Translations under genes and position numbers: made by a program
DNA from: Terriglobales bacterium
GTDB taxonomy: Bacteria > Acidobacteriota > Terriglobia > Terriglobales > Acidobacteriaceae
NCBI GenBank assembly: GCA_035517775.1
Contig: DATIYF010000017.1
Coordinates: forward strand, 14,743-78,742
Reading direction: 5' to 3'
Length of the DNA: 64,000 nucleotides
Shown: positions 12,745-37,210 of the stretch, piece after piece
Position numbering within the stretch: position 1 is the first letter of the stretch
How the letters are laid out: every line of letters begins with the position of its first letter
The notes under the pieces: generated by a model
The model's database searches: none
What the model was told of the DNA's origin: nothing
What the model saw: the letters and a program-made list of their open reading frames with translations, nothing else

Positions 12745-13443
12745 GTGTTCCAATTGGGGATGGGGCGTGTACGGCCACACGGGATTGCCATGCGGGGAGT
12801 GAGCCTCGGCACAGGGTCAGGCGGGAACCGCAGAACGATTTCTGCGCGCAAGTTCCGGCCCGGCCGGCGTGACCGGCATGCTCGCGAGCAGGCGCTGGTT
12901 GCGGCGGCGGCCAAACTGTTTGCCTCTCAGGGTTACGACCTTACCACTACCCGCCAGATCGCGGCCCGGGCCGGTTGCGCCGAAGGCCTCATTCACCGTT
13001 ACTTCCATGGCAAGGCCGGCCTGCTGTTCGCCCTGATTCAGTCCCGGGTCTCCAAGGAAGTGGCCGGCCTGAGTGAACGGTTGCGGCGCGCCCCCAGCCT
13101 GGAGGAGGAATTGTTGCAACTGGTGGACTGGGAGATCGAGCGCATGTGGGACGATCGGGATTTCCTGCGGGTCATCATCCCTCGTGCCCTCCTCGACCGG
13201 AGTCAGGGCAAAATTCTCAATCGTGTGGGCACCTCTCGTCATGTTCCCGCCATTGCCGAACGCCTGCGGCAATTTCCCCAGTGCCGAAAGCTCTCTGCCG
13301 AGCGCCTGGAGGCGCTGGCCGAATTCATCAAAACCCTGGGCATGATGTATGGCTTCATGCATCCCATGGTCCTGCGCCAGGACCGCAAGCGGGCGCGCCG
13401 CTCGGCCGTCGCCATCACCAGAATTCTTGCCGCCAATCTCTGA
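12745..13443 (+). CDS. TetR/AcrR family transcriptional regulator
   Basis: HTH region AAAKLFASQGYDLTTTRQIAARAGCAEGLIHRYFHGKAGLL. The ORF-track start is GTG; in-frame ATGs at 12760 and 12790 are alternative starts. Confidence 0.85.
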   Translation: MFQLGMGRVRPHGIAMRGVSLGTGSGGNRRTISARKFRPGRRDRHAREQALVAAAAKLFASQGYDLTTTRQIAARAGCAEGLIHRYFHGKAGLLFALIQSRVSKEVAGLSERLRRAPSLEEELLQLVDWEIERMWDDRDFLRVIIPRALLDRSQGKILNRVGTSRHVPAIAERLRQFPQCRKLSAERLEALAEFIKTLGMMYGFMHPMVLRQDRKRARRSAVAITRILAANL

Positions 13444-13491: not shown

Positions 13492-13521
13492 TTGACAGTT
13501 AACATCGCGAGGTGCTAACTA
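13492..13521 (+). promoter_or_regulatory. candidate sigma70-type promoter with overlapping inverted repeat (candidate TetR operator) for the cytochrome-porin/cox operon
   Basis: TTGACA (13492-13497), 18-nt spacer, TAACTA (13516-13521). The inverted repeat AGTTAACA (13497-13504) / TGCTAACT (13513-13520) matches 7 of 8 positions and spans the spacer. GCTAACTAAG resembles GCAACTAAG next to the TetR-upstream palindrome. AGGAGG lies 8 nt before the ATG at 13648. Confidence 0.4.
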
Positions 13522-13647
13522 AGTGCACACGCGCTTACAAACGCTATCAGTTGCGTGTGCGCCTACATTCCCTTTCGCGTCTCGCACCGCATGTGGGGTT
13601 TTACTCGGGTTCACAATTTGGCTCAGATTCCGTGCTAGGAGGACTCC

Positions 13648-14985
13648 ATGACTTCGTCCCGGAGGAGTCTTGCAGCATTCGTGCTGCTTGCGTTTTTCAT
13701 TCTGGGGTCGTTTCAGAGTGCACACGCCTTTCCTGCTTTCGCTAGAAAGTATGGCCTTCGCTGTTCCGCCTGCCACGAGGCTTGGCCGATGCTCAACGCC
13801 TTCGGCCAGAAATTCAAAGACAATGGCTATCAGTTAATGGATGATCGGGATTCCCCGATCTGGCAAAACAACGGCTATTGGCCGGTGACCTTCCGCATCA
13901 CTCCCTATTGGCATCGGGATAGCACCGACAAGGTTTCAACCGACCAGGCCTCCACCGGCCAGCAGAAGGTAACCATCAATGGCTTTGACCTGAGCGGCCT
14001 CGATATCCTGAGCGGCGGCACCATCTACAAGAACATTTCTTTCCTGATGGTTCCTTCCGCCGATGAGACCGGCGCCTTTCACTTTGAATCAGTCAACGTC
14101 CGCTTCGACAACGTAGCCCACAGTTCCTGGCTGAATTTCAAGATGGGCAAATTCGAATTGGATAACCTGGTCTCGGAAAAGCGCGAGATAACCCTTTCCG
14201 GCAACGGCGCGAACTATCTGATCTATCACTTCATTCCTGCGACGTGTGCCGGCTGTGCGGATGATTCCAACGTCTTCGGGCAGGTTGGCGACAACCAGCT
14301 TGGTGTGGAGTGGCTGGGGCACTCGTACGACGACCGCACCCGAATTTCCGCCACCTTGATGAGCACCAACGACGGCAACGTGGACTTGCCAACGAACAGC
14401 TACGGGGGGTTCTTTGCCGCCAGCCAGGCGTTTGACGCGGGCAAGCTGGGCTTGCAGCGCGTCGGCTTCTACGCCATGGTGGGTCAGTCGCCGACTTACT
14501 ACTTAACGTCAGGCGGCACTCCGCTGGGCTTCGGTAGCCTGGGCAACAAGACGTTCACTCGGGAAGGCTTCGTCGGGCTCTTCTACCTGGGCAAGCTGGA
14601 TTTCCAGGTGGTCACCCAGCATGGCGAGGATGACGCATTTCTGGCAACCGGCACAGCCGCCAACACTGCGCTGCCCACGGGCGCCCGGAATGCCACCTGG
14701 AACGGTGGGCTGGTTGAGACGCACTATGTCTACAACCCGCAGCTGATCTTTATTCAGCGTTATGACTGGGTGCGCATGTCGCAACAAGCCACACCCGGCA
14801 CGCCCTCGACCCTGGGGAACATGGACCAGCTCACCTTCGGGTATCGCTATTACCCATTCATGACCAGCCGGGCCGGTCTTGCCTGGCACAACGAATATTC
14901 CTGGTTGCGTCAACGGGGAATGGCGCCAGACGGAACTGACCTAACCACCGGCACCCTGATGCTGGGACTCGACTTCGACTTCTAG
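13648..14985 (+). CDS. monoheme c-type cytochrome fused to an outer-membrane beta-barrel (Cyc2-like fused cytochrome-porin candidate)
   Basis: Signal peptide MTSSRRSLAAFVLLAFFILGSFQSAHA. Then FPAFARKYGLRCSACHEAWPMLNAFGQKFKDNGY, with the single CxxCH at nt 13762-13776. The remaining ~390 aa are rich in alternating amphipathic strands (VTFRITPYW, FHFESVNVRF, WLNFKMGKFEL, RISATLMST, FVGLFYLGKLDFQVV, LVETHYVY, LTFGYRYYP, AGLAWHNEYSW). It ends LMLGLDFDF with terminal Phe. Confidence 0.7.
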   Translation: MTSSRRSLAAFVLLAFFILGSFQSAHAFPAFARKYGLRCSACHEAWPMLNAFGQKFKDNGYQLMDDRDSPIWQNNGYWPVTFRITPYWHRDSTDKVSTDQASTGQQKVTINGFDLSGLDILSGGTIYKNISFLMVPSADETGAFHFESVNVRFDNVAHSSWLNFKMGKFELDNLVSEKREITLSGNGANYLIYHFIPATCAGCADDSNVFGQVGDNQLGVEWLGHSYDDRTRISATLMSTNDGNVDLPTNSYGGFFAASQAFDAGKLGLQRVGFYAMVGQSPTYYLTSGGTPLGFGSLGNKTFTREGFVGLFYLGKLDFQVVTQHGEDDAFLATGTAANTALPTGARNATWNGGLVETHYVYNPQLIFIQRYDWVRMSQQATPGTPSTLGNMDQLTFGYRYYPFMTSRAGLAWHNEYSWLRQRGMAPDGTDLTTGTLMLGLDFDF

Positions 14986-14992
14986 AGAGGGA

Positions 14993-15856
14993 ATGACGAT
15001 GCGCACAAAGCTACTCAAGTGGTCGCTGATGATGGGCGCAACCATGGTCCTCGCGCTGTCGGGCCATTCGCAAGCCCAGCTGACAACGGAAAACATAGCC
15101 TCTCGTCTTAACATGGAAGCCCATGCTGACGGTTTGACAGGCCACGCCAAGGCGGCGGAGATGGACTATCGCCGCTACTGCGTCGGCTGTCATGGACCGT
15201 TGGGAGACGGCAACGGCGAGAACGCGACGTGGCTCGATCCCAAGCCGCGCGACTTCCAACTCGGGATTTTCAAGTGCCGCTCCACTCCGACTGGCACGCT
15301 GCCCACCGATGAGGATCTGTTCGACACCATCGCCCGCGGCCTGGATCGCTCGAACATGCCTCCGTGGAACACCTTCACGAAGCAGATGCGGATTGATCTG
15401 GTGGCTTATGTGAAGCACTTCTCTCCCCGCTTTGCTACGGAAAAGCCGGGCGCGCCCATTCAAATTCCACCCGAGCCGGAAGTTACTGCCGACCGGGTCA
15501 AAGCGGGGCGGGAGTTGTTCAAGAAAATGGAGTGCTGGAAGTGCCACGGTGTGCAAGGCATGGCCAATGGTCCTTCTTCTGCCACGCTCACCGACGACCA
15601 GAACCGCCCGATTCTGCCTTACAACTTTACCGACGGCACCCGCCCCAAGTGCGGATCTACCGACCGCGATATCTACCGCATCTTCATGACCGGTCTGGAT
15701 GGGACGCCGATGCCATCGTTCTCCGACAACATCAAGCCCGACGAGGCTTGGGACCTGGTGTTCTACCTGCGAACCCTGCAGCCCGCCAACGGCATGAACA
15801 CCAAGGAGCGGGAGATCGCCAAGCAGCTTAACCTGCCGCCGGTAACGCCAGATTAA
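14993..15856 (+). CDS. diheme c-type cytochrome (periplasmic or membrane-anchored)
   Basis: N-terminal hydrophobic signal/anchor. Two CxxCH motifs: YCVGCHG (nt 15179-15193) and CWKCHG. Starts 7 nt after the upstream stop. Confidence 0.9.
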   Translation: MTMRTKLLKWSLMMGATMVLALSGHSQAQLTTENIASRLNMEAHADGLTGHAKAAEMDYRRYCVGCHGPLGDGNGENATWLDPKPRDFQLGIFKCRSTPTGTLPTDEDLFDTIARGLDRSNMPPWNTFTKQMRIDLVAYVKHFSPRFATEKPGAPIQIPPEPEVTADRVKAGRELFKKMECWKCHGVQGMANGPSSATLTDDQNRPILPYNFTDGTRPKCGSTDRDIYRIFMTGLDGTPMPSFSDNIKPDEAWDLVFYLRTLQPANGMNTKEREIAKQLNLPPVTPD

Positions 15857-15889
15857 TCAGAGACGAAACGGAAAACAGGAGAGAGCCCA

Positions 15890-16645
15890 ATGAAGAGAGC
15901 GTACAAGTACAAGCTGGCTGCCATGGTGCCGGCGCTGGCTCTGGTGGCGGTAGCCATTGCCCTGCTTGGCCCCAAAGTGAGTGCTGCTCCGGCCGGAGAA
16001 GGCAGCATTACCGGCATGGCCAAGCTGGATGGCAGTGCTCCGCACATGCGCGGCATAGACATGACCAAGGACCCCTGGTGCGCCAAGCAGCACGCTGATA
16101 ATCCCGCCCATCTGGAAAATGTGGTCGTGGGCAAGAACAGCGGCCTGGAGTATGTGGTGGTTTACATCTCTGAAGGCCTGAGTGGCGCCGAAGCTGGGGA
16201 AAAGCCCTCGCAGGTGCCGGTTTTCGATCAGAAGAACTGCATGTACACACCTCACGTGCTGGCGATGGATGTCGGCCAGCAGTTCAAGGTGATCACCAGT
16301 GACCAGACCGCGCACAACATCCATCCCGAGCCGAACCCGATGACCGGCAACATTCCCTGGAACCGGTCGCAGCCGCCGGGCGCGCCTCCCATCCTCACCA
16401 GCTGGAAGACCGAGGAGATGATTCAGGTGAAGTGCAACATTCATCCCTGGATGCACGGATGGTTTGCCGTGGTCAAAGGTCCTTATGGCACCACGGACGA
16501 TGACGGCAACTACACCATCAAAGATGTGCCGCCGGGAAGCTATACCCTGACGGCCTGGCAGGAAGAGTACGGGAAACAAACCGCTAAGGTGACAGTTGCA
16601 GCCGGTAAGCCTGCCACTGCGGACTTTACCTTCAAAGCAAAGTAA
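15890..16645 (+). CDS. type-1 (blue) copper cupredoxin with amicyanin-type ligand loop and C-terminal CarboxypepD_reg-like beta-sandwich
   Basis: N-terminal anchor/signal AAMVPALALVAVAIALL. Upstream His in QTAHNIHPEP. C-x2-H-x2-M loop CNIHPWM (nt 16433-16453), compare amicyanin CTPHPFM. C-terminal TTDDDGNYTIKDVPPGSYTLTAWQEEYG. AGGAGA Shine-Dalgarno. Confidence 0.8.
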   Translation: MKRAYKYKLAAMVPALALVAVAIALLGPKVSAAPAGEGSITGMAKLDGSAPHMRGIDMTKDPWCAKQHADNPAHLENVVVGKNSGLEYVVVYISEGLSGAEAGEKPSQVPVFDQKNCMYTPHVLAMDVGQQFKVITSDQTAHNIHPEPNPMTGNIPWNRSQPPGAPPILTSWKTEEMIQVKCNIHPWMHGWFAVVKGPYGTTDDDGNYTIKDVPPGSYTLTAWQEEYGKQTAKVTVAAGKPATADFTFKAK

Positions 16646-16664
16646 GACGGTGTGTCACCGGCGA

Positions 16665-16693
16665 AACTGGCGCAGCCCCCGCCTGCGCCAGTT
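16665..16693 (+). terminator. strong intra-operon stem-loop (11-bp perfect stem AACTGGCGCAG/CTGCGCCAGTT, loop CCCCCGC) between the cupredoxin gene and coxB
   Basis: Read directly. Not followed by a clean U-run (ttcgctgcttc). It could be an attenuator, processing site or mRNA-stability element rather than a full terminator. Confidence 0.35.
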
Positions 16694-16746
16694 CGCTGCT
16701 TCAAGTCGTATACACCAGACAGACAGCCAACTAGAGGCGAAACGCT

Positions 16747-17547
16747 ATGGCCAAGTTGTTTGCCGTGACCATCATCCTTATTGCTATCGCGTCAGCGGTT
16801 CCGATCGTACGCGGCACCTGGACTCAGCCGGTGGATATCTCCACTCATGGCCACTCCATTGACGAGCAGTTCCACGAAACCATGTGGGAGGCCGGGCTGG
16901 CCTTCCTGGCAGCGCAAATCGTCCTCGGACTTTTCATCTGGACCAGCGCCGGCCGGGGCCCCGATGCCCAAATCAAGCGCTTTCCCGGAGGGGCTACGGG
17001 TTTGGTTCTGGCCGCGGTTTTTCTGGTGGGGACGGAAGTGATCGCTTTGGGGATATTCGGCGTCAATGCCTGGGCCCAGGTCTATTTCGCGCCGCCCGGG
17101 CCGGACGCCATGCCCATTCAGGTGCAGGCCGGGCAATTCGCCTTCTACTTTCGCTATCCCGGCCCTGACGGGAAGTTCGGGCCCATTCACCCCGACAAGA
17201 TTGATGAGGCCAACCTGAATTTCTTCGGCCTGGACTATGACGAGCCTGCCACCAAGGATGACATTGTTACCGCCGAGATGGCCATTCCGGTGAACCGGGA
17301 AATTCATTTGCTGATGCACTCCAAGGACCTCGGGCATTCCTTCTATGTGCGCGAGCTGCGGGTGCAGCAGGATTTTGTGCCCGGCCTCGACGTCTCTCTG
17401 CACTTCACGGCCACCAAGGTCGGCAGGTACGAAATTGTCTGTACACAGCTTTGCGGGCTGGGGCATTACAACATGAAGACCTACCTGGAAGTGATGTCGC
17501 AGCAGGATTTCGACGGCTGGCTGAAAAAAGAAGCAGCCATGCAGTAG
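16747..17547 (+). CDS. coxB: cytochrome c oxidase subunit II (CuA subunit, no fused cytochrome c domain)
   Basis: TM helices followed by a cupredoxin domain with CuA ligands HSFYV...CTQLCGLGHYNM. The protein ends 25 aa after the CuA site and contains no CxxCH. Confidence 0.95.
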   Translation: MAKLFAVTIILIAIASAVPIVRGTWTQPVDISTHGHSIDEQFHETMWEAGLAFLAAQIVLGLFIWTSAGRGPDAQIKRFPGGATGLVLAAVFLVGTEVIALGIFGVNAWAQVYFAPPGPDAMPIQVQAGQFAFYFRYPGPDGKFGPIHPDKIDEANLNFFGLDYDEPATKDDIVTAEMAIPVNREIHLLMHSKDLGHSFYVRELRVQQDFVPGLDVSLHFTATKVGRYEIVCTQLCGLGHYNMKTYLEVMSQQDFDGWLKKEAAMQ

Positions 17548-17608
17548 TTACGGCCCTCGCCTGCTCACGCCGCAGGGCGAGGATTTCTGGTTCGCGAGGT
17601 GATGACAC

Positions 17609-19381
17609 ATGCACGATGTATCTGCCCCTGCGGTACACCACGGTCCACCGCAGAGCTTCATCAGCAAATACGTCTTCAGTCTCGACCATAAGGTGATCGG
17701 CAAGCAGTATTACGCCCTGGCCCTGGTTGCAGTCTTCACCGGCATGGTGCTTTCCTGGCTCATGCGGCTGCACCTCGGCTACCCCGACCTGAAGATTCCC
17801 GGCCTGCATCTGCTCTCCAAGATTGGCGCTCCGGGCGACGTCATGACGCCGGAGTATTACCTGCAGTTGATGACCATGCACGGCACCATCATGGTCTTCT
17901 TCGTGCTGACCACGGCGCCCTTCGCCGCCTTCGGCAACTTCTTCCTGCCCATCCAGGTGGGTGCCGAAGATATGCCCTTCCCGCGCTTCAACATGATGTC
18001 GTTCTGGGTCACCTTCGTGGCTTTTCTGGTTCTGATCGCCGCGTTTTTCGTGGGCGACGGCCCGCCGCTCTCCGGCTGGACCGCTTATGCGCCGCTTAGC
18101 GCCGTGGGCGCGGTGGCCGGCCCTGGACAAGGTTTGGGGCAGATTCTGTGGGCGGCTTCGATTGGCATCTTCTGTATCGGCCAGCTATTGGGCTCACTCA
18201 ACTTCATAACGACTACCCTCGACATGCGCACCAAAGGCATGAGCCTGATGCGCCTGCCGCTGAGCGCCTGGGCATGGTTCATCACCTCCTGCATGGGGCT
18301 TACCGCCTTCGCCGTGCTCATGCCGGCCTGCATTCTGCTTATTCTTGACCACGTGGCCGGCACCAGCTTCTTCATTCCCTCAGGCCTGGTGATCAATGAT
18401 CAGCTACAGCCCCATTCTGGCGGCTCTACGCTGCTCTGGCAGCACCTGTTCTGGTTTTTTGGACATCCCGAGGTCTATATCGCCATTGTGCCTGGCATGG
18501 GCATCGTCTCGCACGTGCTCATCACCAACATGCGCCGGCCGCTGCTCAGTTATAAGGTGATGATCGCCTCCATGACCTCCATCGCCTTCCTGAGTTACAT
18601 GGTTTATGGACATCACATGTTCGTCAGCGGGATGAACCCCACGTCGTCGCTGGTGTTTTCATTCCCCACGCTGGTCATCACCATCCCGGCGACCATTATT
18701 ACGCTCATCTGGATCGGCAGCCTGTACGGCTCGCGATTGCGCATCAACGCCGCTTCGCTGTTCGCCCTGGGCTTTATCTCCATGTTCGTGGCCGGGGGCG
18801 TAAGCGGCTTCTTTCTGGCCCAGCCCTCGATCGACATCATGCTGCACGCCACCTACTTCGTTGTCGGCCATTTCCACCTGGTGATGGCGGTGGCCGCCAT
18901 CTTCGGCATCTTCGCCGGGACTTACTTCTGGTTCCCCAAAATGACCGGCAGAATGATGAACGAAACCCTGGGCAAGATTCACTTCTGGTTCAGCTTCGTC
19001 GGCGCCTACTGCATCTTCATGCCCTTCCACTACCTGGGCATCATGGGCAACGTCCGCCGCTACGCGCAGTTCGTAGATGACTACATGCAACCGGTTCTGG
19101 GCGTACACAAGTTCATTACCATTGCCGCGCTCACCACGGGCGCCGCGCAGTTGATCTTCCTCTACAACCTGATTTACAGCCGCTTTTGGGGAGCAAAAGC
19201 TCCTGACAACCCCTGGGAGGGCACGTCGCTGGAATGGAGCACGACCTCGCCGCCGCCGTGGGATAACTTTGGCGGCAAGCATCTGGTGGTCCATCACGAT
19301 CCCTATCAGTACGGGATGAAAAGCTCAACCGGCGATTACATCATGCAGACCTCGCCGGAGCCTTCGCCGACTGGAGAGTAA
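17609..19381 (+). CDS. coxA: cytochrome c oxidase subunit I (A-type heme-copper oxidase)
   Basis: WFFGHPEVY (His-Tyr), YGHHMFVSG (CuB His pair), VVGHFHLVM (heme ligands). Polytopic membrane protein of 590 aa. Confidence 0.97.
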   Translation: MHDVSAPAVHHGPPQSFISKYVFSLDHKVIGKQYYALALVAVFTGMVLSWLMRLHLGYPDLKIPGLHLLSKIGAPGDVMTPEYYLQLMTMHGTIMVFFVLTTAPFAAFGNFFLPIQVGAEDMPFPRFNMMSFWVTFVAFLVLIAAFFVGDGPPLSGWTAYAPLSAVGAVAGPGQGLGQILWAASIGIFCIGQLLGSLNFITTTLDMRTKGMSLMRLPLSAWAWFITSCMGLTAFAVLMPACILLILDHVAGTSFFIPSGLVINDQLQPHSGGSTLLWQHLFWFFGHPEVYIAIVPGMGIVSHVLITNMRRPLLSYKVMIASMTSIAFLSYMVYGHHMFVSGMNPTSSLVFSFPTLVITIPATIITLIWIGSLYGSRLRINAASLFALGFISMFVAGGVSGFFLAQPSIDIMLHATYFVVGHFHLVMAVAAIFGIFAGTYFWFPKMTGRMMNETLGKIHFWFSFVGAYCIFMPFHYLGIMGNVRRYAQFVDDYMQPVLGVHKFITIAALTTGAAQLIFLYNLIYSRFWGAKAPDNPWEGTSLEWSTTSPPPWDNFGGKHLVVHHDPYQYGMKSSTGDYIMQTSPEPSPTGE

Positions 19382-19429
19382 CTGGCGGGGGAGTCATAAG
19401 TTAACGGGAATTGGGAAGAAGTCAGGGAC

Positions 19430-20101
19430 ATGGCTACTACAGTTCACGAACCACCGCAGATCAAATCGCCTCGGCGCTCGACAGCAGACTCCGGAGGCGG
19501 GGGCTGGCGCAACCTGGTTCCGGCCGGGGGAAATCTCCGCGCCGTGCGGGATGATTCTTCCCCAGCCTCACGCACCGGCATCTGGGTAGCGATCGCCGCC
19601 ATCACTATGACTTTTCTGGCCTTCACCAGTGCGCTGGTGGTACGCCAGGGGGCCTCGAATGACTGGCGGCACATGCAGCTGCCGGGAATCATTTACTTCA
19701 ATACCCTGGCTTTGTTGGCCAGCAGTTTCACGCTTGAGGCCGGCCGCCGCGGCTTTCGCGCCATGCAAGGCGACCTCAGCCGGCGTGCCGCGACCTTGCG
19801 TGCGCTCTATGCCACGCTCGGCCTGGGCCTGGTTTTTGTAGCCGGTCAATACATGGCCTGGCTGCAACTGAAGGCGGAAGGCTTATACCTTGCCACCAAT
19901 CCCAGCAGCTCTTTCTTTTATGTGTTTACGGCCGTGCACGGGCTGCACGTTCTGGGCGGGCTGGCCGGGCTGGTTTACGTGATCCGGAAGCTGAACAGAA
20001 ACCATCTGCATGGCAGCACGCTGAAGACGGCTTCCCACTACTGGCATTTTATGGATGTGCTCTGGCTGTACTTGCTTTTGGTGCTTTGGATGAAGCTCTA
20101 G
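19430..20101 (+). CDS. coxC: cytochrome c oxidase subunit III
   Basis: Five-helix subunit-III pattern: FYVFTAVHGLHVLGGL and HYWHFMDVLWLYLL. Confidence 0.88.
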   Translation: MATTVHEPPQIKSPRRSTADSGGGGWRNLVPAGGNLRAVRDDSSPASRTGIWVAIAAITMTFLAFTSALVVRQGASNDWRHMQLPGIIYFNTLALLASSFTLEAGRRGFRAMQGDLSRRAATLRALYATLGLGLVFVAGQYMAWLQLKAEGLYLATNPSSSFFYVFTAVHGLHVLGGLAGLVYVIRKLNRNHLHGSTLKTASHYWHFMDVLWLYLLLVLWMKL

Positions 20102-20118
20102 TCCATACAGGAGGCGCT

Positions 20119-20748
20119 GTGAGCGAAGCTAATCTGACCATGGAGGCACACGGTACCGGGCTGATGGAGGCCTCGCCGTTTGCCGTGCCGGCCAAGAAGC
20201 TGGCCATGTGGCTGTTCATCATCGCCGATGCGATGACCTTTGCCGCGGTTCTGATCGCCTACGGTTTTCTGCGCAACAGCACTCCTAGCTGGCCGGAGCC
20301 CTTCGAGTTCTCGCCCTCCATCATCAACGTGATGGTCATGACCTTCATCCTGATCAGCAGCAGCCTTACCATGCTGTTTGCCATCCGCGCCGCACAGGTC
20401 AGCGACAAGGCCCGGGCCTTTACATGGATTCTGATCACGGCCCTGGCCGGCGCGGTTTTCGCCCTGCTGCACATTCGCGAGTGGCTGGGCATGATCGGCC
20501 AGGGGGTGGGACTGTTTCACAATCCCTGGGGAACTCCGTTATTTGGCGCCGCCTTCTTTTGCGTCACCGGACTGCACTTGTTGCACGTCACCGGCGGAGT
20601 CATAGCTCTGGTGGCCGTGGGCTTGCGCTACCAGAGAGGCCGTTACAAGGCCGACGATATTGAAATTCTGGGTCTGTACTGGCACTTCGTGGATATTGTC
20701 TGGATGTTCGTGGTGCCGTTGGTCTATTTGCTGAGCATACACCGCTGA
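20119..20748 (+). CDS. second heme-copper oxidase subunit III family protein
   Basis: FFCVTGLHLLHVTGGV and LYWHFVDIVWMFVVPLVY. I place the start at the in-frame GTG 20119, preceded by AGGAGG (20109-20114), rather than the ORF-track start 20086 that overlaps coxC. Confidence 0.85.
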   Translation: MSEANLTMEAHGTGLMEASPFAVPAKKLAMWLFIIADAMTFAAVLIAYGFLRNSTPSWPEPFEFSPSIINVMVMTFILISSSLTMLFAIRAAQVSDKARAFTWILITALAGAVFALLHIREWLGMIGQGVGLFHNPWGTPLFGAAFFCVTGLHLLHVTGGVIALVAVGLRYQRGRYKADDIEILGLYWHFVDIVWMFVVPLVYLLSIHR

Positions 20749-20772
20749 CCGCCAACCGGAGGATGAACTGCT

Positions 20773-21090
20773 ATGACCCCTATGGAAGAACACGGGAACT
20801 TGACCACGGATGTTATTGTATATCTCGTTCTTTTAGGCATCGCCGGCCTGCAAATCATTCTGGCGTATAGCTATCACGGTGGCGGCGAGGGTCTGCTGGG
20901 GCGCCTGTTGATCGTGGCGGCCATCCAGGCGGTTGTAGCGGTCTTGTTTTTCATGCACCTGCGGTGGGAGAATCGGGCCATGTTGGTTTCGGTGGCGGTG
21001 GTGACGCTTTTCGTACTGATATCACTGCAGTACAGCTGGAGTGATAGCTTTCGCTTGCTGCACGGCGTGCCCTTCGCGCGCTTTCATTAA
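20773..21090 (+). CDS. cytochrome c oxidase subunit IV (prokaryotic small subunit)
   Basis: 105 aa with three hydrophobic helices (VIVYLVLLGIAGLQIILA, LLIVAAIQAVVAVLFFMHL, MLVSVAVVTLFVLISL). Position right after subunit III. GGAGGA Shine-Dalgarno. Confidence 0.75.
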   Translation: MTPMEEHGNLTTDVIVYLVLLGIAGLQIILAYSYHGGGEGLLGRLLIVAAIQAVVAVLFFMHLRWENRAMLVSVAVVTLFVLISLQYSWSDSFRLLHGVPFARFH

Positions 21091-21101
21091 ACTGATTGAA
21101 G

Positions 21102-21392
21102 ATGACTCGGCCCCGGAGCTCGATGTGGTTCGCCGCCTTTGCCGCGGGGGTGTTGCTGCTTTCCGCCTCTCTGCCTGCGTTTGGGCAGGGCTGCGCTCTC
21201 TGTTACACTCAGGCGGCCTCTTCGGGCGCGCGCATGATTCATGCCCTGCGTGACGGCATCCTGATTCTGGTGTTGCCGCCCACTTTAATGTCGGTGGGGG
21301 TGGCCTTCGTGGCCTATCGCAGGCGCGACTATTTTCACCGCCCGGAAAGTTCACAACCGGATTTCCCCACGGAGCTCCATGGCGACGACTGA
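21102..21392 (+). CDS. small membrane protein with signal peptide, CxxC motif and C-terminal TM helix
   Basis: MTRPRSSMWFAAFAAGVLLLSASLPAFGQGCALCYTQ...ILILVLPPTLMSVGVAFVAY. The ORF-track start 21096 is TTG; ATG at 21102 is preferred. It overlaps the ctaB start by 14 nt. Confidence 0.55.
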   Translation: MTRPRSSMWFAAFAAGVLLLSASLPAFGQGCALCYTQAASSGARMIHALRDGILILVLPPTLMSVGVAFVAYRRRDYFHRPESSQPDFPTELHGDD

Positions 21393-22281
21393 GACCATGA
21401 CATCTTTCGGGTACAGGCAGAGCTTGCCTTGCAGGCTGCGGGATTACTACACCCTGACCAAGCCGGAAGTGAACCTGCTGATTCTCATCACCACGTCAGC
21501 CGGGTATTACCTGGGAAGCCAGAGTGGCTTTCGTTTTGCAGGACTGATCAACACGCTGATCGGTACCCTGCTGGTAGCGAGCGGCACTGCCACTCTCAAT
21601 CAGTATATGGAGCGCGGCTACGACGCGCAGATGCGCCGCACCGCGAGCCGGCCGGTCGCTTCCGGACGGATGGCAGCGCTCGAAGCCTTCCTGTTTGGCG
21701 TGGTTCTGAGCGTAGCCGGCGGAATTTACCTGTGGGCCACGGTCAATTCGCTGGCCGCGGTGCTGGCCGTTTCCACCCTTCTATCCTATTTATTGGTGTA
21801 CACGCCGCTGAAGCGGGTCACTCCGCTCTGCACCCTGCTGGGGGCGATTCCTGGCGCTATGCCAACGCTGATCGGATGGGCCGGGGCCTCGGGCACTCTG
21901 AACCTGCAGGCATGGTTCCTGTTCGCGGTGCTGTTTCTGTGGCAGTTTCCGCACTTTCTCGCCATCGCCCTGATGTACCGTGAGGATTACGCCCGCGCCG
22001 GTTACAAGATGCTGCCCGGCTTCGATGCCGAAGGCCGCTTTACCCGCGCAGAGATCACTGCTTTCACCATCGCGCTCACCGCCGTCACGTTGTTGCCGGT
22101 CTTCGCTGCCGGCCCCAGCTTGACGTATCTGCTGGCCATGGGAGCGGCGGGTGCATTCTTTCTCTATTACAGCGCCCGGCTTTCGGTCACCGCGTCGCGG
22201 GGCTCGGCCAAACACCTGGTGCACGCGTCTGTGATCTATTTGCCGGTGGTGTTTCTGATTATGATTGTCTGCAGGCCCTGA
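21379..22281 (+). CDS. ctaB: protoheme IX farnesyltransferase (heme O synthase)
   Basis: UbiA-family polytopic protein. Motifs: LTKPEVNLLIL, NQYMERGYDAQMRRTASRP, and WQFPHFLAIALMYREDYARAGYKMLP typical of CyoE/CtaB. Confidence 0.93.
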   Translation: MATTETMTSFGYRQSLPCRLRDYYTLTKPEVNLLILITTSAGYYLGSQSGFRFAGLINTLIGTLLVASGTATLNQYMERGYDAQMRRTASRPVASGRMAALEAFLFGVVLSVAGGIYLWATVNSLAAVLAVSTLLSYLLVYTPLKRVTPLCTLLGAIPGAMPTLIGWAGASGTLNLQAWFLFAVLFLWQFPHFLAIALMYREDYARAGYKMLPGFDAEGRFTRAEITAFTIALTAVTLLPVFAAGPSLTYLLAMGAAGAFFLYYSARLSVTASRGSAKHLVHASVIYLPVVFLIMIVCRP

Positions 22282-22289
22282 AGTTCGTT

Positions 22290-23222
22290 GTGATGATGGT
22301 CCCGTCCCCTTCTCGATTGGCATCGCGAATCACTCTCAGCCGTCTGGATGCGCCGCGAATCCACAGCGCGCCATCACCGGTTGGAATTTGCGCTTTGACC
22401 TTCACCCTGAGCGCTTTGTTGCTGGTTGCGCCGGCGGCCTGGGGCAAAGTAAAAGAGCATTATGGCGATGGCTTCGTGGTTGACCTGAATCACCCGGCCA
22501 GCCAGGTGGTGGATTTTGTGCACGCCGTGACGGAAGACGGAATTATCCGCGGCACCTCCGACTCCCGCGGCGCCAGCGAGCTGTATGGCGCCAGTTCGGC
22601 CAAGACCTCCGACGCATTCCCCCGCTGGACCCAAGGCGGCACGGTTCTTTTCAAAGTTCGGCCCGGCGCCCTGGCGCCCGACCACTTTTATCAAAGCAAC
22701 GACCAGGGCACTGTCGTGGTGCGCTACGTGGTGCAGCCTCTAAGCGCCGATTCATGCCGCCTGCGCATTGACGCGATTTTTGAAGAAGATTCCCACCACC
22801 ACCACCATCCTTCCGACGGCCTGGTGGAGAACAATGAGTTCGAGGCGATCGCGGCGAAGATAAAAGAATTCGAGAATCTGGAGCAACAGCGGCGCGAAGC
22901 TGAGGCCCAGCAACAGATGCAAGATAAGGTGCAGGACCTTGACGCACAACTGCAGCAGGAAAACACACGCCTGGATGACCTGAACAAGAAGCAGGCGGAC
23001 CTGCGGCAGAAAATTCAGGCTACACAGGGCGGAAAACCTGGCCGCATTACCACGAGCGCAGAGTTGAAGACGGGACCCTACCAGGCCGCGAGCGTGGTGG
23101 AACAACTTTCTCAGGGCGATGCCGTGACCGTGCTGCAGGAGACGCCCTACTGGTACCGCGTGCAAAGCGCCAGCGGAAAGCGGGGCTGGGTGTATCGCCT
23201 GATGCTCGAGGTGGCGCAGTGA
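22290..23222 (+). CDS. secreted hypothetical protein: N-terminal alpha/beta domain, Gln-rich coiled coil, C-terminal bacterial SH3-like domain
   Basis: Signal-like ICALTFTLSALLLVAPAAWG. Natural HHHHH run (nt 22794-22808). Coiled coil EFENLEQQRREAEAQQQMQDKVQDLDAQLQQENTRLDDLNKKQADLRQK. SH3b-like GPYQAASVVEQLSQGDAVTVLQETPYWYRVQSASGKRGWVY. Starts 8 nt after the ctaB stop. Confidence 0.7.
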   Translation: MMMVPSPSRLASRITLSRLDAPRIHSAPSPVGICALTFTLSALLLVAPAAWGKVKEHYGDGFVVDLNHPASQVVDFVHAVTEDGIIRGTSDSRGASELYGASSAKTSDAFPRWTQGGTVLFKVRPGALAPDHFYQSNDQGTVVVRYVVQPLSADSCRLRIDAIFEEDSHHHHHPSDGLVENNEFEAIAAKIKEFENLEQQRREAEAQQQMQDKVQDLDAQLQQENTRLDDLNKKQADLRQKIQATQGGKPGRITTSAELKTGPYQAASVVEQLSQGDAVTVLQETPYWYRVQSASGKRGWVYRLMLEVAQ

Positions 23223-24376
23223 AGGCCATGCGAAGCGCGGGCATGCTGGCGGCGGTGCTGCTGCTCGGGCTCTTGTTGAATGCGCAAACCCCGAAGGGGG
23301 TGCAGCGGGAGTTTGCTTTTCCGATTACGGCGGTCGAGGCTGCGCTGAAACAGTTGGACGCTTACACCGGCGCCCGCCTGCCCACTCTGGATGGATTTAT
23401 CACGACCGAGCGGGCGCAACTGCCTCACTACCAGCGTCCTTATTACGAGTACAAGATCAACCTGACCATGGCGGGAGCGACTCGCACTGAGGTGCAGGTC
23501 AGGGCGGAAGTTTCGGCCTGGTTTGAAGATCCCCAGGGTCAGCAGTCCGGCTATCAGACGCTGGAATCCAATGGCCGCCTGGAGAGCGATTTGCTGGACC
23601 GTCTGGGCGAGTATCTGACCACGAATCAGTCAAAGCTGCTGGCCGACCCGTCTGCCCTGGTGAAGCAGATCGCTGCGGTTCGCCAGCAGGAAAGCGATGC
23701 GCAGCAGCAGATCGCCGAACTCGAGCAGCAATTGCAGCAGGCACAAACCGGCAGCGAGCATGCCGATCGTGCCGAACTGGTAACCGTGGCGCGCGGCCGG
23801 ATTGCAGTTCTGAAGTCGCCGGAAGAGCATTCGCCGGTTGTGCTGCACGCCCAGGCCCAGGATGAATTCGAGGTATTGGAACACCGCGGCGCCTGGTTGC
23901 GGGTGAACCTGCAAGACGCCAGTTCCGGCTGGGTGCGAAGTTCAGACGTGCGCCCCGCGGCGGCGGGGGATGATTCCTCATCTTCCGCGGACTCCGCCGG
24001 GTTCATGGTCATCCGAAAAAATGTCATGCCTTTTTCCGGCGATTGGCCGCGCCTGAAAGGTAAGCCCACGCTGTACGTTTGGGCGCGGCCGCTGGGTTCG
24101 AGCCTCAATGCGTCTCCGGCGGGACGTTTGCATTTTGCCCAGGCCCTGTTCCGGCAACGGTATCTGGAGGCCGTGCACAGTCCGCAACGGTCGTTTGAAG
24201 GCGTTGTGGTGATCTTTCTAGATGCTGGCGGCGGCGTGGCGGCGGCCAACCTGGAAGACATCGGGCAGTGGGTGGATGAGACCATCAAAGAGCCCGTCTT
24301 CCAGGCCCGGTGCTCTTTCGACCCCCGCAGCGAGTTCTTCGCCGCAGCGCGCGCGGAGGCGCAGCGAAAGCGCTGA
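23219..24376 (+). CDS. secreted hypothetical protein, paralogous architecture (N-domain, coiled coil, SH3-like) plus an extra C-terminal domain
   Basis: Signal peptide MLAAVLLLGLLLNAQT. Coiled coil VRQQESDAQQQIAELEQQLQQAQ. SH3-like SPVVLHAQAQDEFEVLEHRGAWLRVNLQDASSGWVRSSDV. The start overlaps the upstream stop by 4 nt. Confidence 0.7.
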   Translation: MKAMRSAGMLAAVLLLGLLLNAQTPKGVQREFAFPITAVEAALKQLDAYTGARLPTLDGFITTERAQLPHYQRPYYEYKINLTMAGATRTEVQVRAEVSAWFEDPQGQQSGYQTLESNGRLESDLLDRLGEYLTTNQSKLLADPSALVKQIAAVRQQESDAQQQIAELEQQLQQAQTGSEHADRAELVTVARGRIAVLKSPEEHSPVVLHAQAQDEFEVLEHRGAWLRVNLQDASSGWVRSSDVRPAAAGDDSSSSADSAGFMVIRKNVMPFSGDWPRLKGKPTLYVWARPLGSSLNASPAGRLHFAQALFRQRYLEAVHSPQRSFEGVVVIFLDAGGGVAAANLEDIGQWVDETIKEPVFQARCSFDPRSEFFAAARAEAQRKR

Positions 24377-32495: not shown

Positions 32496-35450
32496 GTGGG
32501 GTTCATGAGCGAAATATATAAATCCAAAGGATTTCTTCGCCGGCGCGGGCTGCCCGGGCTGATTGTTTTTCTCTTTCTTTCGGCCATTTATCTGTACGCC
32601 TTCCCGCAGCCCAACCTTATCTATCCAATCGTCGTCTTGTTGCACGTCGCGGCCGGAGTAGTGGCGACGATTCTTCTACTCATTTATCTCGTCAGGCTCT
32701 TGAGGGAATGCGGCCTGCTGGCTCGGCTGGGCTGGCTGCTTTTGCTGGCGGGCGGGATTACCGGCGGCATCCTGATCAAAACCGGCGCCCTGCGGGCCGA
32801 CTGGAACCTTCTGTACGCCCACATCGTCATCTGCCTCGCGGCAGTTGGCTTTTTGTTCGCCGAGTGGGCCGGCCGCCGCGGCTGGCTGGCGCCGGGCCTG
32901 GTCCGAGCCGCTCTCCGAACCGTCCTCTGCATGGTGTTCCTTGCAGGGCTGGGCGCCGGCGCGCAGTATTTCCGCAAGGCGCGCTGGCTGAACAGCGCCA
33001 TCATTCACAATCCACCCGATTCGCCCGCTACCATGGATGGCGAAGGCGATGGCCCCAAAGGCCCCTTCTTCCCCAGTTCCGCCCAGGTCTATGGCGGGCA
33101 GAAAATTCCCAGCCAGTTCTTCATGCAGTCCGATTCCTGCAAGCGCTGCCACCAGGACATTTACAACCAGTGGTTCAGCTCCGCCCACCACTTTTCTTCT
33201 TTCAACAATCAGTGGTACCGCAAGGCGGTGGAGTACATGCAAGCCACCGTGGGCACCCGGCCCTCCAAGTGGTGCGGCGGCTGCCATGACCCGGCAGTGC
33301 TTTACGCCGGCAAAATGGATACTCCCATCAAGTACTTCGTGCACAGCCCCGAGGCGCAAGCCGGTCTGGGCTGCATGATGTGCCACTCGATCGCCCGCGT
33401 GAAGAGCACCATGGGCCAGGCGGATTTCTACCTCGAATATCCCGAGCTGCACGCCCTGGCCGCCAGCAAAAATCCCGTGGTACGCTTCATGCACGATTTT
33501 CTGGTCAAGCTGAATCCTGAGCCGCACCGCCGGGTGTTCCTCAAGCCCTTCATGCGCGATCAGACCGCCCAGTTCTGTGCCAGCTGCCACAAAGTCCATC
33601 TCGATGTGCCGGTGAATCATTACCGCTGGGTCCGGGGCTTCAACGAATACGACAACTGGCAGGCCAGCGGCGTTTCCGGGTTCGGCGCGCGTTCGTTCTA
33701 CTATCCCGCGCATCCCATGCAGTGCGCCGATTGCCATATGCCCCTGGTCCGCTCCAGTGATTTCGGCAACATCAACGGCTTCATTCACTCCCACCGTTTT
33801 CCGGCGGCCAACACCGCCGTTCCCACGGCCAATGAAGACTGGAAGCAACTGAAGGTGGAAGAGGATTTCCTGAAGAATGACATCCTGAGCGTGGATATCT
33901 TCGCGCTCTCTCCCGAGCCCACTCCCCTCAAAGTGAAGGCCAACGCCTACAGCCCCTCGGAACTCTCCACCACGTTCGGTGTAGGCGAAGAATCCGAATC
34001 GAAGATCACTCCCGTAAATGTGGGTGAGATTGCCCCGATCACCGCTCCCCTTGACCGCGTTCAGCCCATCGTGCGCCGTGGGGATAACGTCCGCGTAGAT
34101 GTCGTCGTGCGCACCAAGAAAATCGGACACTTCTTCCCCGGCGGCACGGTGGATGCCTTCGACGTATGGCTTGAACTCAAGGGCACCGACGACAAAGGCC
34201 AGACCGTTTTCTGGAGCGGCGAGGTGGAAGATAACGGCCACGGTCCGGTCGAGCCCGGCGCCCACTTCTACAAATCGCTGCAGGTGGATGCCCACGGCAA
34301 TCCCATCAACAAGCGCAACGCCTGGGCCACGCGCTCGGTCGTGTACGTGCACCTCATCCCGCCCGGCGCGGCCGATACCGTGCACTACCGCATGCACATT
34401 CCGGAAAAAGCCGGCGACAAGATCACCCTTCACGCGCGTCTCTGCTACCGCAAGTTTTCCTGGTGGAACACGCAGTTCGCCTTCGCCGGGGTTCCCGATC
34501 CCAACCAGACTCCGAGGCCGGAAGTCACGCCGAACTTCGACGACAGCAAGTTTGTCTTTACCGGGCCGCTGCAAGGCTTATCTGCCAAGGAGCAGAAAAT
34601 TCCCGATCTTCCCATCGTCGCGTTGGGCGAAGATACGGTTACGTTGAACGTTGCTCCGCAAAATGCTCCGGCGCCGCAGCCCAAGGTGGTGATGACCAAA
34701 GAAGACTGGCATCGCTGGAACGACTACGGCATTGGCCTGCTGCTTCAGGGTGATCTCAAGGCGGCGCAGGCGGCCTTCGTGAAAGCCACGCAAGCCGACC
34801 CCAACAATCCCGATGGCTGGGTGAACATTGGCCGGGCCATGGTGCAGGAAGGCGATATGGAGCACGCCCGCGCCGCCCTGCAAAGAGCCTTAGCTCTGAG
34901 CCCCAATCTCGCCCGCGCCCATTATTTCTATTCGCGGGTTCTGCTCAGCGAGGGCCGCTATGACCAGACGGCCGCCGAGTTGCGCACGGTGCTGGCGCAA
35001 TATCCTTATGACCGCGTGGTCCTGAACGACCTGGGCCACGTTCTGTTCTTGCAGCGCAAGTACGCCGAGGCCGTGCAGACCCTGAACCGCGTACTGGCCA
35101 TTGATCCCGAAGACCTGGAGGCGCATTACAACCTGATGCTCTGCTACAAGGGGCTGGGCGATGAGAAGGACTCTCAGGCTCACGAAGTCCGCTATTTACG
35201 CTTCAAGGCCAACGAAGCAGCGCAGGCGATCACCGGTCCTTATCGCCAGACCCATCCCTTCGATAACAACGAGCGGCAGGCCATTCATGAGCACCTTTCC
35301 GTGCCGTTGCCGATTCTTGCCTCCGCCTATACCGAGCAGATGGAAAAACCTGCGCCCATGCCCTCGTATTCACGTACCACCCACGCGCCTCATAAGCGCC
35401 GCAATCCGGCATACTCGAAGATCATCCTGCCTTCCGGGGCCTCCAGGTAA
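32496..35450 (+). CDS. membrane-anchored pentaheme c-type cytochrome with C-terminal TPR domain
   Basis: About 5 N-terminal TM helices. Five CxxCH motifs (CKRCH, CGGCH, CMMCH, CASCH, CADCH). C-terminal TPR repeats (AHYFYSRVLLSEGRYDQTAAELRTVLAQYP..., AHYNLMLCYKGLGD). Confidence 0.85.
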   Translation: MGFMSEIYKSKGFLRRRGLPGLIVFLFLSAIYLYAFPQPNLIYPIVVLLHVAAGVVATILLLIYLVRLLRECGLLARLGWLLLLAGGITGGILIKTGALRADWNLLYAHIVICLAAVGFLFAEWAGRRGWLAPGLVRAALRTVLCMVFLAGLGAGAQYFRKARWLNSAIIHNPPDSPATMDGEGDGPKGPFFPSSAQVYGGQKIPSQFFMQSDSCKRCHQDIYNQWFSSAHHFSSFNNQWYRKAVEYMQATVGTRPSKWCGGCHDPAVLYAGKMDTPIKYFVHSPEAQAGLGCMMCHSIARVKSTMGQADFYLEYPELHALAASKNPVVRFMHDFLVKLNPEPHRRVFLKPFMRDQTAQFCASCHKVHLDVPVNHYRWVRGFNEYDNWQASGVSGFGARSFYYPAHPMQCADCHMPLVRSSDFGNINGFIHSHRFPAANTAVPTANEDWKQLKVEEDFLKNDILSVDIFALSPEPTPLKVKANAYSPSELSTTFGVGEESESKITPVNVGEIAPITAPLDRVQPIVRRGDNVRVDVVVRTKKIGHFFPGGTVDAFDVWLELKGTDDKGQTVFWSGEVEDNGHGPVEPGAHFYKSLQVDAHGNPINKRNAWATRSVVYVHLIPPGAADTVHYRMHIPEKAGDKITLHARLCYRKFSWWNTQFAFAGVPDPNQTPRPEVTPNFDDSKFVFTGPLQGLSAKEQKIPDLPIVALGEDTVTLNVAPQNAPAPQPKVVMTKEDWHRWNDYGIGLLLQGDLKAAQAAFVKATQADPNNPDGWVNIGRAMVQEGDMEHARAALQRALALSPNLARAHYFYSRVLLSEGRYDQTAAELRTVLAQYPYDRVVLNDLGHVLFLQRKYAEAVQTLNRVLAIDPEDLEAHYNLMLCYKGLGDEKDSQAHEVRYLRFKANEAAQAITGPYRQTHPFDNNERQAIHEHLSVPLPILASAYTEQMEKPAPMPSYSRTTHAPHKRRNPAYSKIILPSGASR

Positions 35451-37141: not shown

Positions 37142-37167
37142 CCCGCGGGCGGTATGGCGCAGAAAAG

Positions 37168-37196
37168 CTCTGTGCCCTCCGCGCCCTCTGTGGTTA
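37168..37196 (-). repeat. copy of dispersed AACCAC-(CRRAGG)n intergenic repeat
   Basis: The reverse complement reads aaccacagagggcgcggagggcacagag. It lies between the stop at 37141 and the likely true start at 37211 of the next gene. Confidence 0.6.
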
Positions 37197-37210
37197 AATT
37201 CCTTCTGCCA

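Follow-up and report, generated by a model that had tools for sequence, protein, structure and literature searches.

The ten-gene locus and its conservation

The DNA analyzed here is a stretch of 64,000 nucleotides (nt) from contig DATIYF010000017.1 of a Terriglobales bacterium (assembly GCA_035517775.1); this whole stretch is called the window, and all positions follow its numbering. At 13648-22281, the list of open reading frames (ORFs) and their translations give ten co-directional ORFs on the + strand that encode a Cyc2-family cytochrome-porin, a dihaem cytochrome c, a cupredoxin, a haem-copper oxidase, and a heme O synthase, and that may together form an electron path from outside the cell to O2. 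An earlier sequence-only reading of this locus had described the ten genes with gaps of 7, 33, 101, 61, 48, 17, 24, and 11 nt and one 14-nt overlap. We reproduced this spacing by taking GTG 20119 as the start codon of gene 7 and ATG 21102 as that of gene 9; TTG 20086 and ATG 20140 are alternative candidate starts for gene 7. When one genome per GTDB species was scanned, relatives of gene 1 were detected in at least 595 genomes, and the locus counts given below refer to the best 80 of these, all of them metagenome-assembled genomes (MAGs) and nearly all labelled Terriglobia or Terriglobales, including Ca. Sulfotelmatobacter. The ten genes are as follows.

13648..14985, + strand: gene 1, Cyc2-family fused monohaem cytochrome-porin of 445 amino acids (aa), predicted to be in the outer membrane
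14993..15856, + strand: gene 2, predicted periplasmic dihaem class I cytochrome c of the Kustc0457 type, 287 aa
15890..16645, + strand: gene 3, type-1 copper cupredoxin plus CarboxypepD_reg beta-sandwich, predicted to be N-terminally anchored or secreted, 251 aa
16747..17547, + strand: CoxB, oxidase subunit II with a CuA site and without a cytochrome c domain, 266 aa
17609..19381, + strand: CoxA, A1-type haem-copper oxidase subunit I without the K-channel lysine, 590 aa
19430..20101, + strand: subunit III paralogue a (Pfam COX3, E=3e-13), 223 aa, conserved in 67 loci
20119..20748, + strand: gene 7, subunit III paralogue b (Pfam COX3, E=6e-12), CyoC/CtaE-like, conserved in 67 loci
20773..21090, + strand: subunit IV (Pfam COX4_pro, 38 bits), 105 aa
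21102..21392, + strand: gene 9, small membrane protein with a conserved G-C-A-L-C-Y-T-Q-A-A motif, possibly an assembly factor
21379..22281, + strand: CtaB, heme O synthase (TIGR01473, 266 bits against a cut-off of 210), 300 aa

All motifs quoted in the sequence-only reading are present: CSACH once in gene 1, CVGCH and CWKCH in gene 2, CNIHPWM in gene 3, CTQLCGLGHYNM in CoxB, and GHPEVY, HHMF, and GHFHLVM in CoxA. In searches of Pfam, which it had recommended, and of NCBIfam, two cytochrome c domains, COX2, COX1, COX3 (twice), COX4_pro, and heme O synthase were recognized, and no family in either collection matched gene 1 or gene 9. The gene 1 product has a 100% identical counterpart among the hypothetical proteins of a 'Terriglobales bacterium' MAG at NCBI, which confirms the acidobacterial origin suggested by the earlier reading. 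The gene 9 product has a hydrophobic N-terminus, one transmembrane helix, and a near-invariant GCALCYTQAA block, and the gene follows that for subunit IV in 66 loci.

The string is strictly co-conserved. Genes 1-3 are adjacent in 75/75 loci with room for them, and the nine-gene core from gene 1 to gene 9 is complete and in order in 60 of the 67 loci with at least 8.5 kb of downstream sequence; because so many related loci keep this order, the arrangement is far beyond chance. In most of the other seven loci, the only gene that escaped detection was the short one for subunit IV. The ctaB gene is directly downstream in 42 loci, and where it is not, a ctaB-like gene is often found upstream on the opposite strand. 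The clade of gene 1 relatives at 46-50% identity corresponds to Ca. Acidoferrales/Acidiferrales, and two long Acidoferrales contigs carry the same string as the window. The synteny mapping that the earlier reading had proposed, done here for these loci and contigs, shows the string to be kept in Terriglobia and in the sister order Acidoferrales. From this wide, ordered conservation we conclude that the module is old and stable in the class Terriglobia and not recently transferred.

A few loci depart from the common arrangement. In two independent assemblies (L049 10001-14300 and L054 1339-4700) ctaB comes immediately after genes 1-3, and the locus sequence contains no cox genes; the presence of the three genes together without adjacent cox genes suggests that they form a unit. 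About a dozen genomes (among them L003, L004, L007, L015, L019, L042, L043, L073, L074, and L077) carry, in the interval from gene 3 to coxB, an additional gene of ~290 aa at roughly +3.1 to +4.0 kb relative to where gene 1 starts (for example L004 13104-13973); its product has a glycine-rich membrane segment and a C-terminal half that looks STAS-like (anti-sigma-antagonist-like) by eye. Contigs or proteins labelled Candidatus Binatia, Candidatus Eisenbacteria, and Verrucomicrobiae (L021, L064, and protein P0379) hold copies 62-70% identical to the window genes, and together with the window synteny of L021 and L064 this indicates mis-binning or recent transfer.

Cultured carriers were found neither among the best 80 loci nor among the best 120 protein matches, all of which come from MAGs or metagenomes. 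Cluster look-ups gave no isolate names, and the look-up of P0093 returned metagenome assemblies only. The supplement of a paper on a sulfate-reducing acidobacterium was considered as a source of expression data and set aside, since it concerns a Bryobacterales-type MAG (Sulfopaludibacter), not Terriglobales.

The encoded proteins and their known relatives

The Cyc2 family has been defined by a signal peptide, a single CxxCH, an upstream AxPxFAR[Q/K][T/Y], a PxL four residues downstream, and a porin remainder, with a length of at least 365 aa (PMC8406198). Gene 1 agrees with the sequence features of this definition. Its N-terminus is signal-peptide-like as judged by eye, ending AHA|F, and is followed by A27-F-P-A-F-A-R-K-Y35, GLR, CSACH, EAW, and P47-M-L49; the single CSACH occupies residues 39-43, after MTSSRRSLAAFVLLAFFILGSFQSAHA, and the length of 445 aa is above the family minimum. 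A search of 1.84 billion cluster representatives returned 2311 relatives. The motif is retained, with occasional substitutions, in 27/27 distant full-length relatives (27-68% identity), in which P, F, and CxxCH are invariant. Gene 1 ends in ...LDFDF, an aromatic last residue, and most of the 27 distant relatives likewise end in an aromatic residue, as outer-membrane barrels do. The similarity to Cyc2 that the sequence-only reading had put up for checking was found in the haem domain: BLASTP aligned gene 1 with Acidithiobacillus ferrooxidans Cyc2 at 40% identity over the first 53 residues (E=1e-8), and comparison of the family profile with this protein by hhalign gave a probability of 97-98%, with the signal coming from the haem domain. 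Gene 1 therefore belongs to the Cyc2 family as that family has been defined by sequence in the literature.

The barrel part of gene 1 is predicted mainly from a structure model. When this part alone was compared by profile with the A. ferrooxidans Cyc2 barrel, no signal above the shuffled controls was obtained, so homology of the barrels cannot be claimed from sequence; the missing signal agrees with the known lack of porin conservation in the Cyc2 family. PDB sequence searches with the single gene 1 sequence and with a 28-member profile gave no match. The AlphaFold2 (AF2) model, a poor one built from an alignment of close homologues only (at least 64% identity), has ~15 strands over residues 122-444 with a mean predicted local distance difference test score (pLDDT) of 49. 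Its top Foldseek matches are all outer-membrane porins (OmpT, OprB, PorB, and OprO), with query TM-scores of just 0.3-0.4; PorB and OprO are also the templates reported for Cyt572 and Cyc2 (PMC10654088, PMC8406198). The barrel prediction is of low confidence. Gene 1 is likely a beta-barrel on this model, and the motifs, the family profile, and the Foldseek matches bear out its description as a Cyc2-family monohaem protein with a porin-like C-terminal part.

Gene 2 contains two CxxCH motifs and matches Pfam Cytochrom_C and Cytochrome_CBB3. Its best PDB relative is chain B of 6H5L (Kustc0457; E=4e-55, 43% identity over 204 aa, both haem domains covered), a dihaem cytochrome that forms a stable complex with the nitrite reductase Kustc0458, which resembles hydroxylamine oxidoreductase (HAO), and extends its haem circuit (PMC8042395). 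The two proteins are alike in dihaem sequence, and Kustc0457 is a dedicated electron-wiring subunit; its partner is an octahaem HAO, whereas gene 2 is found in the oxidase operon of an aerobe without an octahaem HAO partner. Two other assignments of gene 2 were rejected. The c4/Cyc1 type was ruled out since BLASTP found no significant match between gene 2 and Cyc1 and Kustc0457 is the best PDB relative; at the profile level the match to Cyc1 spans one generic class I domain only (probability 93%). The Leptospirillum cytochrome 579 was rejected since the C-terminal domain matches the cytochrome579 model NF033864 weakly (E=8e-13, 48.6 bits), far below the cut-off of 280.

The cupredoxin domain of gene 3 was not recognized by Pfam, which assigns CarboxypepD_reg to residues 200-248. 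In Foldseek searches the AF2 model (pLDDT 77) matched amicyanin, the Nitrosopumilus purple cupredoxin 5FC9, plastocyanin, and pseudoazurin with probability 1.00, and the target TM-scores for the top matches (amicyanin, 5FC9, and plastocyanin) are 0.57-0.73. A profile of 36 orthologues also matches 5FC9 (E=0.007). Residues H142, C182, H185, and M188 are invariant in both orthologue sets, and H145 is invariant in set A3 and nearly so in set A2. The CNIHPWM loop and the upstream AHNIHP mirror CTPHPFM and PHNVHF of amicyanin. Like amicyanin and plastocyanin, gene 3 is predicted to combine the cupredoxin fold with a C-x2-H-x2-M ligand loop and an upstream HN(I/V)H histidine; unlike them, it has a CarboxypepD_reg sandwich, an N-terminal hydrophobic helix, and two extra invariant cysteines, C64 and C117. 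These cysteines suggest a disulfide or an extra metal site. In the model, the cupredoxin appears to be inserted into the CarboxypepD_reg sandwich, between strand 38-47 and residues 199-249. With its invariant ligands, the 5FC9 profile match, and the Foldseek result, gene 3 is by sequence and model a genuine amicyanin-like cupredoxin with predicted copper binding, as the sequence-only reading of a type-1 copper protein with an amicyanin-type loop had proposed.

The oxidase subunits are readily recognized. CoxB matches Pfam COX2 and TIGR02866 (103 bits), and it has a complete CuA motif of the form H...CxxxCxxxHxxM and no CxxCH, which upholds the earlier description of a CuA subunit without a fused cytochrome c; it therefore depends on separate electron donors. 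CoxA scores 426 bits against Pfam COX1. The motifs MHGT, GHPEVY, GHHMF, and GHFH are found and are conserved in 63 orthologues, and EDMPFPRFN is also found. All six histidines that bind the metals are in place, as are the cross-linked Tyr and, in helix VI, the glutamate of GHPEVY, which we take to be the mark of the A1 type in the Pereira/Sousa classification; the D-channel motif is intact. In the K channel, PTGIK of helix VIII (the canonical form by alignment to mycobacterial CtaD) reads PATII, with Ile364 at 18698-18700, and this position is I, V, M, or L in 63/63 orthologues. Losses of the canonical K channel within family A have been discussed previously (PMC8239418).

The sequence-only reading had compared the string with the A. 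ferrooxidans rus operon, in which cyc2-cyc1-cup/acoP-coxBACD-rus is followed by ctaT-ctaB-ctaA (PMC10654088). Our comparator was L084, a complete rus operon on a metagenome contig, with a rusticyanin bait verified against PDB 1CUR. The order of gene types is alike in the two: a Cyc2-family porin, a dihaem c, a cupredoxin, a CuA subunit II without haem c, and subunits I, III, and IV, with ctaB near. The earlier reading had counted the position of the cupredoxin ahead of cox as a difference, and this part did not stand, because the rus operon has cup/AcoP (the 'orf') between cyc1 and coxB (PMC10654088; L084) and the position of gene 3 parallels it. The extra subunit III (two genes in the window string) and the SH3 proteins did stand as differences from rus, and the CxxC mini-protein is a further one. 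The rus host is an obligate acidophilic lithotroph, whereas the window host belongs to a heterotrophic Terriglobales lineage.

At the sequence level the two operons are far apart. The Cyc2 haem domain alone is specifically related, CoxA and CoxB are 32% and 25% identical to the rus versions, and CoxC is barely detectable. The match of gene 3 to AcoP has an hhalign probability of 0.2% and that to rusticyanin 3% (both below 4%), and tblastn found no rusticyanin match within the whole window. The string thus has no c4-type Cyc1, no AcoP/cup orthologue, no rusticyanin, and no rus-type CoxBACD. A horizontally transferred rus operon is ruled out by the low identities and the non-orthologous middle components, in agreement with the earlier judgment that this is not a simple transferred rus operon; by sequence comparison the string is analogous to rus and not orthologous, and the same holds for gene 3 and AcoP/cup, which are analogous by position. 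The CoxA proteins of both systems are without the K-channel lysine (PTGFI in A. ferrooxidans). This shared loss is probably independent because the window CoxA is only 32% identical to rus CoxA and is nearer to the canonical aa3 enzymes, against whose structures it scores higher (E=1e-100 to 1e-105) than against rus CoxA.

Among the tested Cyc2 proteins (Cyc2 PV-1, A. ferrooxidans Cyc2, and Leptospirillum Cyt572; Keffer 2021, McAllister 2020), gene 1 shares the motifs, a length of ~440 aa, and a porin-like remainder, and it is distant from every one of them. In a sequence similarity network study, acidobacterial homologues were linked to Leptospirillum Cyc572 (Cyt572; PMC10654088), and the function of the Cyt572 cluster has been called the most uncertain (PMC8406198). 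The Leptospirillum path from Cyt572 to Cyt579 to cbb3 resembles the string in that an outer-membrane Cyc2-type protein is followed by a soluble class I cytochrome, but the Leptospirillum genes are unclustered and end in a cbb3 oxidase (PMC10654088), whereas the window string is operon-like with an A1 oxidase.

The known A-type oxidases of cultured Terriglobia are caa3 enzymes encoded in superoperons with bc1 or alternative complex III (ACIII; PMC8407424). The bc1-A1 caa3 and ACIII-A2 caa3 superoperons (Trojan 2021) are from the same bacterial class and, like the window oxidase with its A1 GHPEVY, belong to family A. Unlike them, the string is without adjacent complex III, its subunit II is without cytochrome c, its subunit I has no K-channel lysine, and its oxidase genes are preceded by those for an outer-membrane cytochrome-porin, a dihaem c, and a cupredoxin.

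A candidate path from an extracellular donor to O2

We propose that gene 1 would take electrons from a dissolved extracellular reductant, most likely Fe(II), and would pass them to gene 2, the predicted periplasmic His/Met dihaem cytochrome c, from which they would go on to gene 3, the predicted membrane-proximal type-1-copper cupredoxin. Gene 2 and/or gene 3 would then reduce the CuA site of the A1-type aa3 oxidase, which would reduce O2. We put at about even the chance that the string encodes a self-contained respiratory branch, characteristic of the class Terriglobia, in which electrons flow to O2 from Fe(II) or another reductant outside the cell. This chain logic is established for the rus system (PMC10654088, PMC8239418). 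For the window string the proposal is supported by a gene order like that of the experimentally characterized rus operon, by the closeness of gene 2 in sequence to Kustc0457 with its electron-wiring role, by an oxidase without its own cytochrome c, by the strict co-conservation of the genes, by the two assemblies in which genes 1-3 occur without cox genes, and by the absence of a flanking complex III gene, unlike the caa3 superoperons; the window contains no complex III gene at all and no second oxidase. Fe2+ is stable in acidic, redox-fluctuating soils and peats of the kind that these bacteria inhabit, and His/Met haems and type-1 copper suit that couple at pH 4-5. Fe(II) is favored as the donor because Fe2+ would persist at the low pH of the habitat, where the high-potential carriers would fit the couple at pH 4-5. 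It is further favored because every tested Cyc2 oxidizes Fe2+ (PMC8406198). Since no bc1 or 'uphill' module is attached, a heterotroph would be expected to gain additional proton-motive force or to detoxify Fe(II), and not to become autotrophic.

The sequence-only reading had likewise proposed an electron-uptake conduit from the outer membrane to the oxidase. This proposal is partly supported, by the Cyc2-family assignment of gene 1, the cupredoxin of gene 3, and the CuA oxidase, with the barrel as its low-confidence component. Several observations weigh against an Fe(II)-to-O2 path. The likeness of gene 1 to the tested Cyc2 proteins is limited to ~60 N-terminal residues, the barrel scores like shuffled sequence, and the AF2 model of the barrel has the low pLDDT given above. 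Cyc2 homologues distant from the three tested proteins are of uncertain function, and some occur in non-iron-oxidizers (PMC8406198). The window otherwise looks heterotrophic (a TonB-dependent-type barrel, GlnD, glycoside hydrolases, an amino-acid permease, and histidine ammonia-lyase), and a ctaB gene in the string together with the wide distribution is also compatible with a main housekeeping oxidase.

This last explanation, which we consider unlikely, holds that the aa3 enzyme is the ordinary terminal oxidase, that genes 2 and 3 shuttle electrons from a bc1 or ACIII encoded elsewhere, and that gene 1 has an accessory role, for instance letting the copper, iron, or haem needed for assembly cross the outer membrane, or acting as a redox-sensing porin. 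Consistent with it, the string is very widespread (at least 595 species genomes) in a class of aerobic heterotrophs, the rest of the window is heterotrophic, CoxA retains the D channel and the A1 glutamate of pumping oxidases, and ctaB is within or adjoins the string in most loci. The ctaB linkage does not discriminate, because ctaB also follows the A. ferrooxidans rus operon (PMC10654088). A haem-carrying Cyc2-type porin is the first gene in 75/75 loci and is 7 nt from the dihaem cytochrome gene, although an accessory porin would need no conserved c-type haem motif, and, unlike the string, the housekeeping oxidases known from Terriglobia are of the caa3 kind and have complex III genes linked to them (PMC8407424).

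Slightly less likely again, in our judgment, is that the same conduit serves another donor: reduced natural organic matter (hydroquinones), Mn(II), Cu(I), or a cathode-like mineral surface. Many carriers are peat, fen, palsa, or soil MAGs by their record titles, the electrode-oxidizing bacterium Tenderia has Cyc2 homologues, and additional Cyc2 functions have been allowed for (PMC8406198), against which stands the structure-based argument in the same work that monohaem Cyc2 handles dissolved Fe2+ (PMC8406198). A reversed or bidirectional flow, in which electrons under O2 limitation would exit via gene 1 to soluble Fe(III) or oxidized humics and would go to the oxidase when O2 returns, we regard as distinctly improbable. 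A monohaem porin could in principle be reversible, and the Acidoferrales carry the same string, but the enzyme to which the string is tightly coupled genetically is an O2 reductase, not a quinol dehydrogenase. Type-1 copper and His/Met class I haems are usually high-potential carriers, and those predicted here would be suited to the downhill end of a chain. Acidophilic Terriglobia (A. capsulatum and Ca. Acidoferrum) have been tied to Fe(III) reduction in acid soils (PMC7980381), but the three tested Cyc2 members (A. ferrooxidans Cyc2, Leptospirillum Cyt572, and Cyc2 PV-1) oxidize iron (PMC8406198).

With an extracellular Fe(II)-to-O2 path still preferred, we also suggest, with considerable doubt, that the dominant uncultured Terriglobales and Acidoferrales of soil and peat (at least 595 species-level genomes) may have an undescribed aerobic Fe(II)-oxidizing lithoheterotrophic branch composed of a Cyc2-type porin-cytochrome, a Kustc0457-type dihaem cytochrome, a CarboxypepD_reg-embedded cupredoxin, and a variant A1 oxidase that has no K-channel lysine. 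The sequence-only reading knew of no characterized system of this kind in the phylum. Surveys made with FeGenie already count MAGs of Acidobacteriota among the cyc2 carriers (PMC13594681), homologues in the phylum have been linked to Cyt572 (PMC10654088), and Acidoferrales have previously been called iron cyclers (PMC7980381), so that statement needs to be narrowed; it holds for the operon, since we found no description of the conserved operon, its carriers, or the variant oxidase in the literature searched.

Terriglobia, which rank among the most abundant bacteria where soils and peatlands are acidic, are regarded as heterotrophs that degrade polysaccharides. If the proposed path is correct and carries electrons to O2 from Fe(II) or from reduced organic matter, part of the iron oxidation at soil oxic-anoxic interfaces would be theirs, bacteria counted among the most abundant soil 'heterotrophs' would take part in oxidizing the iron of acidic soils, and counts of 'iron oxidizers' made from the cyc2 marker would need a different interpretation. 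The string would also be a second, independently assembled rus-type wiring from the outer membrane to an oxidase, useful for asking which parts are essential. The interest stems from the abundance of the carriers, and the function is one that we infer; the locus supplies concrete test proteins in one monohaem porin, one dihaem cytochrome, and one cupredoxin.

Upstream region and other features of the window

The following features flank the string.

12745..13443, + strand: TetR-family regulator upstream of the string (Pfam TetR_N, E=3e-15)
13492..13572, + strand: promoter-like TTGACA...TAACTA, then an 8-bp inverted repeat GCACACGC/GCGTGTGC, as read from the sequence
22290-23222 and 23219-24376, + strand: a pair of SH3-domain coiled-coil proteins (Pfam SH3_3 and SH3_16)

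An AGGAGG ribosome-binding site is found 7 nt ahead of the gene 1 ATG. The inverted repeat between the TetR gene and gene 1 is a candidate TetR operator. A TetR homologue is immediately upstream of gene 1 in 21/80 related loci, and palindromes with a similar core (TAAGTGCG/CGCACTTA) were observed upstream of gene 1 in several of the TetR-linked loci. Promoter and terminator scans gave scores not above those of shuffled sequences, and Rfam had no match anywhere in the window. In two Acidoferrales loci (L099 7214-9361 and L100 17980-20145), an OmpR-type response regulator and a HAMP-HisKA sensor kinase flank the cluster, with no TetR gene of the kind found in the window.

Homologues of the SH3-domain protein pair adjoin the cluster in most loci, usually divergent and upstream. 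Upstream of the string, the two long Acidoferrales contigs have a pair of divergent genes (~300 and 430-470 aa) without Pfam matches that is similar in size to the SH3 pair. A separate and unrelated multihaem locus was observed at 32496-40663; there, two FG-GAP/UnbV_ASPIC proteins come after a Cytochrome_C554-like protein of 984 aa that has five CxxCH motifs and a TPR tail.

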